Shown in pieces: positions 3,318 through 9,958 of a stretch of DNA of 64,000 nucleotides. The number at the start of each line of letters is the position of its first letter. Position 1 is the stretch's first letter. The notes beneath the pieces were generated by a model, which saw only the letters and a list, made by a program, of their open reading frames with translations, was not told the origin of the DNA and ran no database searches. Both the position numbers and the translations under genes were made by a program. The DNA comes from an uncultured Candidatus Rokubacteria bacterium (GTDB lineage Bacteria > Methylomirabilota > Methylomirabilia > Rokubacteriales > DASRDR01), in contig CAWDVE010000011.1 of assembly GCA_963805625.1 (NCBI GenBank), forward strand, positions 96,001 to 160,000, read 5' to 3'.

Positions 3318-3422
3318 TGCGGGACTATAGCCGGCGCCCCGCAGGGCTGACAACGGCCCGAGCGAAGGAGCGGGACCTCCGAGATTACTCCCGCGAGGGC
3401 AGGCCCGTGCGGGGGACTCCTG

Positions 3423-3605
3423 CTAGCGCCGCGAGGCGGAATCAGTCTCGCGGGCCTGCGAATCGCCCGACGACTCCCGTCCGCCGCAGGTCTTGGGCTC
3501 CGTCCCGGAGCCCGGCGCCGGGGGGCGTCAGCCGAGTCCCCGGCGCGTCAGGAGCACGAAGACGACGGTCAGCCCCACGACCGCGAGGATCTGCTCCCAG
3601 CTCAT
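3423..3605 (-). CDS. small single-TM protein, candidate selenoprotein (UGA at 3528-3530); 25 aa if UGA is a stop, 60 aa on readthrough
   Basis: ATG overlaps the upstream TGA (ATGA) after GGAGG. MSWEQILAVVGLTVVFVLLTRRGLG-UGA-RPPAPGSGTEPKTCGG...SRR-TAG; 8-bp hairpin starts 15 nt after the UGA. Confidence 0.6.
3495..3513 (-). promoter_or_regulatory. candidate bacterial SECIS hairpin of the small membrane protein
   Basis: GGGCUCCG-GGA-CGGAGCCC, perfect stem with a G-rich loop 22-25 nt after the UGA and no U-tract following. Confidence 0.45.
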
Positions 3606-4297
3606 CGGGCTACCTCCGGCTCCGCGCCGGGATCGATCGGGGCGTCTCCCGCCGCGTTGACCGCCCGCAGCACCGCGTCGACGAACTCGGCTTCGGGCAG
3701 GGCCCCCTCGAACGAGACGCGATCGTTGACGACGGTCTTCGGCACGGCCATGACCATGTAACGCTGCGCGAGATCGGGGAACTCGGTCGCCTCCACGCAG
3801 TCGCCGCGGATCCACTCCGAGGCGACCGCGAGGTGATGCGCCAGGCGCACGGCCCGGGGGCAGTGGGGTCAGGTGGGCGTCGAGAAGACCTGAATGTGGA
3901 CGCGCTCCTTGAGGCCGGCCAGGCGCTCGAGCGTCTCGGCCCCGAGGGACGGCGTGCCCGACGAGGCGACGATCATCGAGTCGATCAGGTTCGTGAACTC
4001 ATAGCCCATCGGGATCCCGAAGAACCGGATGCCGTAGTCGCGGGCGCCCTCCACGACGATCGCGGGCACGCGGTCGATCCCGTAGGCCTCCGCCCGTTCA
4101 CGGTCGATGTGGAGGTTGAGGATCTCCACGGTGATCTGGTCCGAGCACTCCGCGACCTCGCGGACCAGCCGCTCGGTCTCGATGCAGTACTCCGACGCCC
4201 CGAGTTGAGTGGAGAACACGATCAGCTTGACCGGACCCGCAAGCTTCGCGAGCTCGGTCTGGACCGCCGCCCGGTCCGGATCCGTCAGGATCGCCAT
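3602..4297 (-). CDS. selenocysteine-containing protein disulfide oxidoreductase (PDO / AhpF N-terminal-like, two thioredoxin folds), UxxC motif
   Basis: ORFs 3869..4393 and 3602..3850 are in the same frame, joined by TGA 3869-3871: VFSTPT-U-PHC-PRAVRLAH; also GIPMGYEF, VMAVPKTVVN, FEGALPE. Confidence 0.9.
3837..3862 (-). promoter_or_regulatory. candidate bacterial SECIS hairpin of the PDO gene
   Basis: UGCCCCCGGGC-CGUGC-GCCUGGCGCA can pair; loop begins 18 nt after the UGA with G at its second position. Confidence 0.5.
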
Positions 4298-6804: not shown

Positions 6805-8239
6805 TCAGAAGCGGAGGGTGGCGAGGACGATCGCTGTCGCCTGGATGTTGCTCGCGGCGTGGGCCAGCATCCCGGGCAGGAGGCTCCGCGTCCGCTCGTA
6901 GGCGACCGCCCACAGCACCCCGCTCACGAAGACCGAGGCGAAGCCGAGCGCTCCGTAGCCGTGCGCCAGGGCGAAGAGCGCGGCGCTGGCGAGGGTCGCC
7001 GGCGCGGGCCCGAGGCCGAGCCTGAGCGTCCCGTAGAGCACCCCGCGGAAAAGCGGCTCCTCCAGGAGCGGCGCGAAGACGCAGCTGTCGAGGACGTCCG
7101 CCGCCACCTCGCCCGGCGTGCCCCACACGAGCCGCTCCTGGAAGCCGTCGGTCCAGTGCGTCTCGACGCCAATGCGCGCGCCCCCGAGCTCGATCAACAC
7201 GTCGGCGAGCGTCGACACGCCCACGAGCCCGAGGGTGGCCCGCACGAGGGTCGGCCAGGACGCCCGCGAGACCTTGAGCCCGAAGGTCTTGGCGAGGGTC
7301 GCCCACGAGCGGTGGCAGTACCAGAGAAGGTATCCCCCGAGCGGGATCGTCTGGAGCACCGACACGAGCAGGGTGGACCACGCCGTCGTCGGGCAGGAAT
7401 GGCCACACCACCGCCACCCCCACCAGACCGACGGCGCCGCGCGTGAACAGGCCGACGCCCGCCGCGACGGTCCAGCGGGGCGGGATGGGCGCCGTGGCGA
7501 CCCGGGCCGCACGCTCTCCCGGGCTGGCGAGCCAGGCGGCGAGCGCCACCAGTCCCAGCGCGACGAGCAGCGTCTCGCCGGCGAGGATGGCGCGAAGACG
7601 CCAGAGCAGCCGGGTGCCCCGCGCCTCGGTGGCGCGCTCCGCCTCCGCGGCCGCCGCCGCATCGCCGAGACGCGACGCCAGCCGGGCCACGAGACGGTCG
7701 GCGAACCAGCCGGCGGGCAGCTCCCGGCGGACCGCGTCGAGTGTCGCCCGGAGCTCCTCCGGCGGCGGAAGCTCGGTCTCGTATGCCGCCCGGCCCCACG
7801 TCGCGAGCCGGCGGGCCCAGTCGTCTCCCGGCGCCCAGGCCGTCACGGCCGCCTCGAGGGCCTCCGCCTGGCCGTCCTCGGCGAGCAGGATGACCCGGTA
7901 GAGCTCGGCCAGCGGCGAGCCCTCGACCCGGACCAGCTCGTCGTACCAAGCGAGCGCGTCGGCCCGCGCCGAAGCGTCGGAGGAGAACGCGAGCGCGTGG
8001 AGCCGGCGCTCCCAGACGGGCGCGGCCCGGGCCGCGGCGCGGAAGTCCATGTCGCTCGCGACCACGCGCTCGAGCGATTGCTCCGGCCGGTCGAGCGTGT
8101 CGAGCCCGTGCGACGGCCAGAAGATGAGGGCGGCCAGGACACCCAGGACCCCGAGGGCGACGCCGGTGACCCAGCGGTTCAAGCGGGGCGGCCCGTCGCT
8201 CGGCTCGACCGGCGCTTCCCCCGCGAGCTCGGCGGACAT
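6805..8239 (-). CDS. CPBP (CAAX/Abi) intramembrane metalloprotease with large N-terminal domain; frameshift near 7380
   Basis: N-terminal part lies in the 6800..9049 frame (MSAELAG...); C-terminal part in the 6805..7662 frame has EEPLFRG, FALAH, LAHAASN. Confidence 0.85.
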
Positions 8240-9105: not shown

Positions 9106-9958
9106 GTGCATCGCGGCCGGAACCTCGCCCTGACGGTGGCCTTCTTCCTCGGGTCCATGGCCCTCTGGGAGGGCGCCGTCCGCGGCCTCGAGGTGCCGCC
9201 CTTCATCCTCCCGGCACCCTCGGCGGTGGCGGTGGCGCTCTGGCGCGGCCTAGCCAGCGGGCTCTACGTGAAACACCTCTGGTACACGCTGATCGAGACG
9301 CTGCTCGGGTTCCTCCTCGGCTCGGCCCTTGGCTTCGGCCTCGGCACGGCGGTGGCCATGAGCCGGTGGGTGGAGTACTTCCTCTACCCCTACATCGTGA
9401 TGTTCCAGTCGCTCCCGAAGATCGCCCTGGCGCCGCTCATCGTCATCTGGTTCGGGCTGGGGCTCGCGTCGAAGGTCGTCAACGCGGGCTTGGTCGCCTT
9501 CTTCCCCCTTCTCGTCAACACCATGGTCGGGCTCAGGTCGGCCGACGAGGACCGCGTGAGCCTGATGCGCTCCCTCGCCGCCACGCGACCGGCAGATCTT
9601 CTGGATGCTCCGGCTCCCCAACGCGCTGCCGTTCGTCATGGCCGGGCTCGACATCGCGATGATCTTCGCGCTGATCGGCGCCATCGTGGGCGAGTTCGTC
9701 GGCGCCACCGCCGGCCTCGGCATGCTGATCCAGAGCATGAACTTCACGATGGACGTCTCCGGCCAGTTCTCGGTGCTGCTGGTGCTCTCGTTCGTGGGCC
9801 TCGGGCTCAGCCGGGCCATCCAGCTGATCCGCCGGCGAGTCCTGTTCTGGGACCCGTCGGAGAAGGCCGCCCTCGAGCATGCCGACGAGGATGCACCCCT
9901 GTCCGCGTCGCTCGCGCGCGACCCGCGCGCGAGGAAAAAGGAGGTTACCGCATGGTGA
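9106..9958 (+). CDS. NitT/TauT-family ABC permease; one-base frameshift near 9590
   Basis: ILPAPSAV, QSLPKIALAPL, then QIFWMLRLPNALPF...GAIVGEF in the shifted frame (9605..9958 ORF). Confidence 0.88.

Follow-up and report, generated by a model that had tools for sequence, protein, structure and literature searches.

A candidate membrane-tethered micro-selenoprotein encoded behind a disulfide oxidoreductase gene in an uncultured Rokubacteria bacterium, and its apparently uncatalogued relatives

Bacterial selenoproteins decoded by SelB through a SECIS element within the ORF carry an in-frame UGA and a G-loop hairpin 16 to 37 nt downstream (as given in Fig. 2 of the review PMC13188914). Their Cys homologs occur in Sec-negative genomes, their distribution follows that of selA, selB, selC, and selD, and gene callers truncate them. 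The TIGR02187 protein disulfide oxidoreductase (PDO) is one known selenoprotein family, listed in Table 1 of the same review. Here, we describe a small ORF behind a PDO gene in the window (the whole 64,000-nt stretch of an uncultured Candidatus Rokubacteria contig that was analyzed) that resembles the SelB-decoded selenoproteins in each of these features. Judging from comparative sequence evidence, its UGA is very probably decoded as selenocysteine by means of the hairpin that follows it.

All features of the locus lie on the minus strand; the plus-strand reading of positions 3423 to 3605 yielded nothing meaningful. The ATG of the small ORF (3605 to 3603) overlaps the TGA stop of the PDO gene (3604 to 3602) in an ATGA arrangement and is preceded, at a distance of 7 nt, by the Shine-Dalgarno sequence GGAGG (3613 to 3617), as an earlier sequence-only reading of this DNA had described. 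In relatives, either the overlap with the PDO stop or a nearby purine-rich site precedes the small ORF. Twenty-five codons ending in RRGLG lead to the in-frame TGA (codon 26; 3530 to 3528), after which the frame stays open for 34 more codons to a TAG (3423 to 3425), giving a read-through product of 60 residues (3423 to 3605). The 25-residue hydrophobic peptide, the open frame, and the TAG were thus correctly recognized in that reading, which had also pointed to a TCGG motif in the tail; the motif is not conserved as such, and only its Cys is. The candidate resolving cysteine is Cys40 (3486 to 3488), located at +14 from the Sec. Contigs assembled from four RNA runs cover parts of the PDO gene, not the UGA of the micro-selenoprotein. 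The downstream nitroreductase gene has a sigma70-like promoter match of its own at positions 3353 to 3324.

The upstream PDO gene (3602 to 4297; 231 residues) contains a UGA at positions 3871 to 3869 in a UPHC motif (U143), followed by a SECIS-type hairpin (3841 to 3857) with a 5-nt apical element 18 to 22 nt past that UGA. The N-terminal CxxC of the PDO is degenerate (SEYC), and the C-terminal UPHC is its only complete site. PDO genes were present in 56 of the 61 genomes searched. Among the best 30 PDO loci, the small ORF was found directly behind PDO in 18 and was absent from 12, and all 18 copies contained the UGA. We consider the PDO a likely redox partner of the micro-selenoprotein. In four order-level relatives (L022, L024, L025, and L029), a different selenoprotein is encoded directly behind the PDO stop. 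It is AhpC/TSA-like, with a hydrophobic N terminus and a UGA after FTPG, FTGG, or FTSG, and its occupation of the same slot suggests that in both arrangements the PDO works with a Sec protein anchored in the membrane. Several other loci vary at this position. One (L016; genome G020) has lost the transmembrane part and the UGA, with a SECIS-like hairpin left as a relic immediately after the PDO stop. In four (L002, L003, L004, and L012), one or two copies of a 17-nt motif separate the PDO stop from the small ORF; the insertion comes with a duplicated ribosome-binding context, and the motif occurs in 26 copies in the genome of the window and looks like a small dispersed repeat. At L006 (G008), the read-through frame runs into the downstream nitroreductase gene with a 381-residue tail, which is either a chance frameshift or a fusion.

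The hydrophobic segment of the small protein (approximately residues 5 to 19; positions 3549 to 3593), which is followed by RR, is predicted to form a single transmembrane helix; its best 17-residue segment has an average hydropathy of 1.98. Under the positive-inside rule, basic residues are found on the cytoplasmic side of a membrane helix. Lys and Arg are commoner on the C-terminal side in 85 of 87 family proteins, and the N-terminal side is acidic; we therefore predict an N-out, C-in topology with the Sec on the cytoplasmic face. An AlphaFold2 model of one family member contained a single helix (residues 2 to 25) and a low-confidence tail (pTM, 0.42). Tails of at least 15 residues were found in 87 of 87 members, and 84 have 15 to 58 residues past the Sec. 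Because the sequence beyond approximately +15 varies freely and the post-UGA part of the micro-selenoprotein is scored as noncoding by a dicodon model (-0.14 versus +0.78 before the UGA), the tail in the window likely serves to carry the SECIS element and one Cys.

Homologs of the small ORF are widespread. A pattern scan of GTDB genomes gave 200 matches, of which 179 were confirmed and 80 were returned; TGA was found at the Sec position in 77 of the 80. The other three loci were unrelated and represented GVPW ends of other membrane proteins. According to their record titles, the carriers include Acidobacteria, Planctomycetes, deltaproteobacteria, Spirochaetota, KSB1, Zixibacteria, Rokubacteria, and others. 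The commonest motif is LPRLGVPT-U-MSxxC, and among 87 unique proteins, a Cys follows the UGA at +5 in 45 and within 30 residues in 74. In nine loci (L075, L078, L080, L086, L107, L114, L118, L123, and L138), the +5 Cys is lacking and a Cys is instead located 20 to 24 residues past the Sec, at or near the C terminus; the spacing of the partner Cys therefore appears to have changed more than once. Both expectations of the sequence-only reading with respect to homologs, namely, Cys or UGA at this position and conservation past it, were borne out: the UxxxxC/CxxxxC spacing is found family-wide, a Cys at +14 or +15 recurs in the lineage of the window, and no TAA or TAG was seen at the Sec position among the homologs examined.

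A profile search yielded 1,047 clusters at E values up to 0.001. Among the representatives of the top 150 clusters, 71 had Cys at the Sec position (60 of them with a Cys at +5, commonly CMSGAC), a share that is inflated by the presence of Cys at this position in the profile. A further 57 ended exactly there, which agrees with the suspicion that gene callers would miss the full-length protein. The rest had Trp (16 representatives) or R, S, L, or G (5 representatives), and one was unrelated. On the basis of the protein records alone, the 16 Trp records are likely gene-caller readings of UGA, and the R, S, L, and G residues would each correspond to a codon that differs from UGA by a single base. 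Of 40 matches in a word-indexed search, 37 were proteins of 26 to 32 residues that stop at or just before the position and, where named, are called "hypothetical protein."

The copy in the window departs from the common form. In its genus, the ORF ends in RRGLG-U (13 copies, including that in the window), and in neighboring genera, it ends in RWVLPRLGVPT-U; one locus of the latter type was identical to a Candidatus Rokubacteria record (L019 = L069). The direct HMM score of the window protein against the family profile was weak (E = 0.038), and its profile-profile comparison with the full-motif form gave a probability of 96.9 (E = 1.5e-10). The two forms share the slot after PDO, the MSW start, and nearly the same hairpin. 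On these comparisons, the window's copy is a divergent member of the larger WVLPRLGVPT-U family.

UGA forms of the gene track the Sec machinery, and the three Cys forms read at the codon level come from genomes without it. In the Planctomycetota sample, at least 28 of 301 genomes carry the gene, and in the Acidobacteriota sample, at least 77 of 251 do (22 to 27 candidates were scored per genome, and the carrier counts are thus lower bounds). Of the Planctomycetota carriers, 25 have UGA and 3 have Cys codons (TGC/TGT). selA was detected in 24 of the 25 UGA carriers, against a background of 219 of 301 genomes; the remaining UGA carrier has selB and selD. The three Cys-form genomes have no selA, selB, or selD match over the cutoff. 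All 78 Acidobacteriota matches contain TGA; in the 29 loci read at the codon level, UGA was found in 29 and a Cys at +5 in 27. selA was present in 75 of the 77 Acidobacteriota carriers versus 121 of 174 noncarriers, a background tally that includes one unpublished genome (G433, a noncarrier). Of the two carriers lacking selA, one has selB and tRNA-Sec, and the other, which gave the weakest and only a partial match, has neither. When the first 50 GTDB carriers (of 77) were examined, 49 had selA; the exception (G078; locus L084) has the UGA form and an intact hairpin, no selA, selB, or selD match over the cutoff, and ambiguous tRNA-Sec scores, and may represent an incomplete bin or a recent loss. 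Related genomes are not independent in these co-occurrence and family counts, so that p-values computed from them overstate the association.

The genome of the window itself encodes tRNA-Sec, selA, selB, and selD, so the selA/selB/selC/selD set anticipated in the sequence-only reading is complete. Its selD gene has an in-frame UGA of its own. Its selB gene is split over two frames by a one-base difference from a close relative in a C/G run (G000:C21, approximately 224970 to 224997). A full-length selB match was found in four of five genus relatives, and the fifth has a partial match in an open frame of 654 codons. The extra base is present in a contig from a second study and in a short-read contig that does not otherwise differ in this region. 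Because short-read contigs and relatives do not have the break, we read the frameshift as a homopolymer assembly error, and a broken Sec machinery was ruled out. Two more genes in the window, presumably encoding a CPBP-like membrane protein and an ABC permease, also seem split between frames (approximately 7446 to 7662 and 9580 to 9605), probably from the same cause. A general recoding of UGA as Trp was likewise ruled out, since long genes of this genome end in TGA; TGA accounts for 1,641 of its 2,487 ordinary stops. Eight further in-frame UGA sites were observed in genes of this genome that were judged by eye to be peroxiredoxin/redoxin-like (in G000, with strand: C4:168796-, C19:61081+, C11:170847+, C19:196211+, C17:56531+, C10:1995280-, C17:546856+, and C24:152170+).

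The hairpin behind the UGA of the micro-selenoprotein (GGGCUCC-G-GGA-C-GGAGCCC; 3513 to 3495) consists of 7 bp plus a closing G-C pair, with a GGA loop 23 to 25 nt past the UGA (22 nt intervene) and a folding energy of -14.8 kcal/mol. It matches the published SECIS consensus, which we took from the Fig. 2 legend of PMC13188914 and coded in our own script rather than using bSECISearch. As the sequence-only reading had stated, the hairpin is perfect, its loop is G rich, and no U-tract follows it; with no minus-strand site here in a terminator scan either, an intrinsic terminator was ruled out. A dispersed repeat was also ruled out, as the 17- to 19-nt hairpin pattern occurs once in the genome. 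A search of Rfam gave 0 matches at E values up to 1. The folding energy alone is ordinary in DNA of 69% GC (z, -0.4 to -1.8); it is the position and the conservation of the hairpin that are unusual. The published consensus was matched by 81 of 90 unique family sequences versus 291 of 720 shuffles. A stricter, position-fixed rule, which was set after the 90 family sequences had been seen, was matched by 75 of 113 members (including 11 of 23 new Planctomycetota sequences) and by 20 of 29 Acidobacteriota sequences held out, versus 42 of 3,390 shuffles, 20 of the 1,641 ordinary TGA stops of the window's genome, and 0 of 3 Cys forms. Within this genome, 10 of 11 Sec sites matched the strict rule (the target, PDO, selD, and 7 of the 8 peroxiredoxin-like sites). 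In 14 aligned sequences, 112 of 112 stem cells were paired, with two-sided changes in four of eight pairs; structures slid along the alignment as a control were 20 to 58% paired, and the structure itself was taken from these 14 sequences. The hairpin thus covaries and fits the genome's own SECIS pattern.

We can now consider what such a protein may do. The sequence shows translation of the small ORF to be coupled to that of the PDO gene, and it shows conservation of the ORF, of the UGA, and of the hairpin. SelB-tRNA-Sec would bind the GGA-loop hairpin and insert Sec, a step that we regard as highly probable. The product is predicted to be an N-out, C-in protein with a disordered tail, the first part of which would be shaped by the need to encode the SECIS element. 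Its selenol may then attack a substrate at the membrane or within it (a persulfide, a disulfide, or a peroxide). A nearby Cys, located at +5 in most family members and at +14 in the window protein, would resolve the resulting form, and a co-encoded thioredoxin-fold enzyme, which at this locus would be the PDO, would re-reduce the Sec. The steps from attack to re-reduction are plausible on balance, and so, in our estimate, is the function that they imply, that of a redox carrier for reactive sulfur, tethered to the membrane on its cytoplasmic side. The complete account, in which a real small gene with a Sec-decoded UGA encodes a single-pass, 60-residue, tethered carrier of this kind, is in our judgment reasonably probable.

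We propose the carrier function because of the sulfur and thiol genes near the family, a Cys-form record fused to thioredoxin (P0189), and the coupling to PDO. Within approximately 4 kb of the 77 GTDB loci, neighbors included thioredoxin-fold (18 loci), DUF302 (17), YgaP-like (14), and rhodanese or MBL-rhodanese (7) genes and, more rarely, OsmC (5), DsrE (5), pyridine nucleotide-disulfide oxidoreductase (4), and TauE (2) genes. A thiol or sulfur neighbor was found at 46 of the 77 loci, compared with 13 of 300 random 7-kb segments taken from the window's genome; this comparison is partly circular, given that the loci themselves supplied the reference genes and that the background is one genome. 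At the held-out Acidobacteriota loci (3 kb), 8 of 29 had such a neighbor. DUF302, the tightest neighbor elsewhere, is absent from the window's genome; it has been reported in sox clusters (in the consulted part of PMC5037610). The neighbor set resembles the sulfane-sulfur-responsive ArsR regulons, which contain sqr, pdo, rhodanese, RND, TauE, and YeeE genes (according to the consulted part of PMC12423496).

The same neighborhoods could be read in terms of metals, with the Sec and the tail cysteines binding a soft metal or metalloid (Cu, Hg, or As) and passing it to an efflux system. RND genes, present near 19 of the 77 loci, and ArsR genes, present near 11, would fit such a role, as would the cation-efflux gene and the multicopper oxidase that adjoin a few loci and the CC or CCC clusters in some Cys forms. 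Metal-related selenoproteins are known (PMC13188914, in the part consulted). Against this, thioredoxin-fold, YgaP-like, rhodanese, SQR-like, DsrE, TauE, and YeeE neighbors together outnumber metal genes, no MerR/MerT/Cop core occurs among the recurrent neighbors listed, and the window gene is coupled to a disulfide oxidoreductase. We therefore regard metal transfer as unlikely.

The motif itself raises a different possibility, that the selenoprotein does not act as a carrier but belongs to a membrane complex as a small accessory subunit or sensor switched by redox state. It might be an AcrZ-like partner of an RND pump or feed a signal into an ECF sigma/zinc-finger anti-sigma pair; RND genes lie near 19 and ECF/zf-HC2 genes near 11 of the 77 loci. 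The conservation of WVLPRLGVPT at the membrane face far exceeds what a simple anchor would require. No neighbor is universal, however, and the genus of the window has deleted most of this motif (six residues beside the UGA) and kept the UGA, the hairpin, and the PDO coupling, so that this role seems somewhat more doubtful still. The genus form has also lost the +5 Cys, its partner Cys being at +14. A Cys at +14 or +15 occurs in 11 of 19 ORFs of the Rokubacteria group (some of them near-identical), including genera that keep the full motif. Frame-shifted long tails were observed in 2 of 12 genus relatives, and several relatives have no tail Cys. The RRGLG codons (pS, 0.27; pN, 0.02, versus 0.33 and 0.22 for codons 2 to 25 overall) appear to be under strong purifying selection. 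That the UGA has become an ordinary stop in this genus, ending a 25-residue peptide and leaving the hairpin and tail as relics of an ancestral selenoprotein, is improbable: the deletion, the lost +5 Cys, the poorly conserved and noncoding-scored tail, and the decay or loss at L008 (a genus relative whose hairpin has decayed), L014, and L016 would agree with it, but the genus copies have UGA in 13 of 13 cases and no TAA or TAG, the hairpin is fully paired with compensatory changes, the +14/15 Cys is shared with full-motif genera, RRGLG is constrained, and the Sec machinery is intact.

The Sec-containing, membrane-anchored protein of 60 residues proposed in the sequence-only reading thus agrees with the conserved UGA, the Cys homologs, the SECIS covariation, and the predicted single helix. 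The family to which it belongs is apparently uncatalogued. When the window protein, 10 homologs, and 39 members of the alignment were searched against NCBIfam 20.0 and Pfam, none scored over the cutoff; weak Pfam scores to PGF-CTERM and Arabinose_trans were below the cutoff and reflect hydrophobicity. PDB sequences and the named clusters of the ESM Atlas also gave no match, and the nearest ESM Atlas cluster (score, 0.88) is an unnamed "hypothetical protein" cluster of 123 members, which we note as a lead only. No family with such a motif or architecture appears among those displayed in Table 1 of the 2026 review PMC13188914, and the family is not described in the consulted parts of deep-Sep (PMC12013277), Haft and Gwadz (10.1101/2022.07.06.499078), SelCysML (PMC13745706), or two 2026 preprints, nor was it the subject of any paper listed in literature searches; existing candidate lists or supplements (e.g., BSepDB) could include it. 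With slightly better than even confidence, we propose a previously undescribed and very widespread family of minimal (approximately 45- to 70-residue), single-pass membrane selenoproteins with UxxxxC. It would be a bacterial counterpart in layout to SelK and SelS and would supply a missing component, as yet unannotated, of the gene clusters that respond to sulfane sulfur (persulfide). Carried by roughly a third of the Acidobacteriota genomes sampled, the family may rank among the commonest selenoproteins of those lineages. In Acidobacteriota, Planctomycetota, deltaproteobacteria, Rokubacteria, Spirochaetota, and others, across which it is widespread, it is annotated as hypothetical proteins of 29 to 32 residues or missed. 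It would also link selenium to reactive-sulfur gene clusters. The same 30 bases would encode the SECIS element and the catalytic motif, in a peptide short enough to synthesize and assay.

Most catalogued bacterial selenoproteins are folded enzymes; this family would extend the catalogue to a Sec peptide that is tethered to the membrane and has no domain. Its spacing, UxxxxC or U-x13-C, differs from the UxxC and CxxU of known bacterial selenoproteins, and it has no folded domain. KCU-star (NF033934), UXX-star (NF041114 and NF041211), and SaoC (NF040734) are similar in their short length, UGA truncation, and lack of a known function. In those proteins, the Sec is at or near the C terminus or on a Grx-like fold, whereas here it follows a transmembrane helix, and their models gave no match to 39 family members. 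The MerT-like and CcdA-like selenoproteins also lie in the membrane and have a Sec in place of a Cys, but they are multihelix transporters or reductant conduits with Pfam matches, unlike the single helix without a match found here. In layout, the family resembles the eukaryotic SelS and SelK, with one helix, a small N terminus outside, and a Sec with a partner Cys in a disordered cytoplasmic tail, as predicted for the family. This likeness is one of layout only, and Pfam gave no match. SelS has the pair Cys174/Sec188 and reductase activity in vitro (according to the consulted part of PMC3628699). Compared with SelS and SelK, the family proteins are much shorter, place the Sec beside the membrane rather than at the C terminus, and would be decoded through a SECIS element within the ORF rather than one in the 3' untranslated region.
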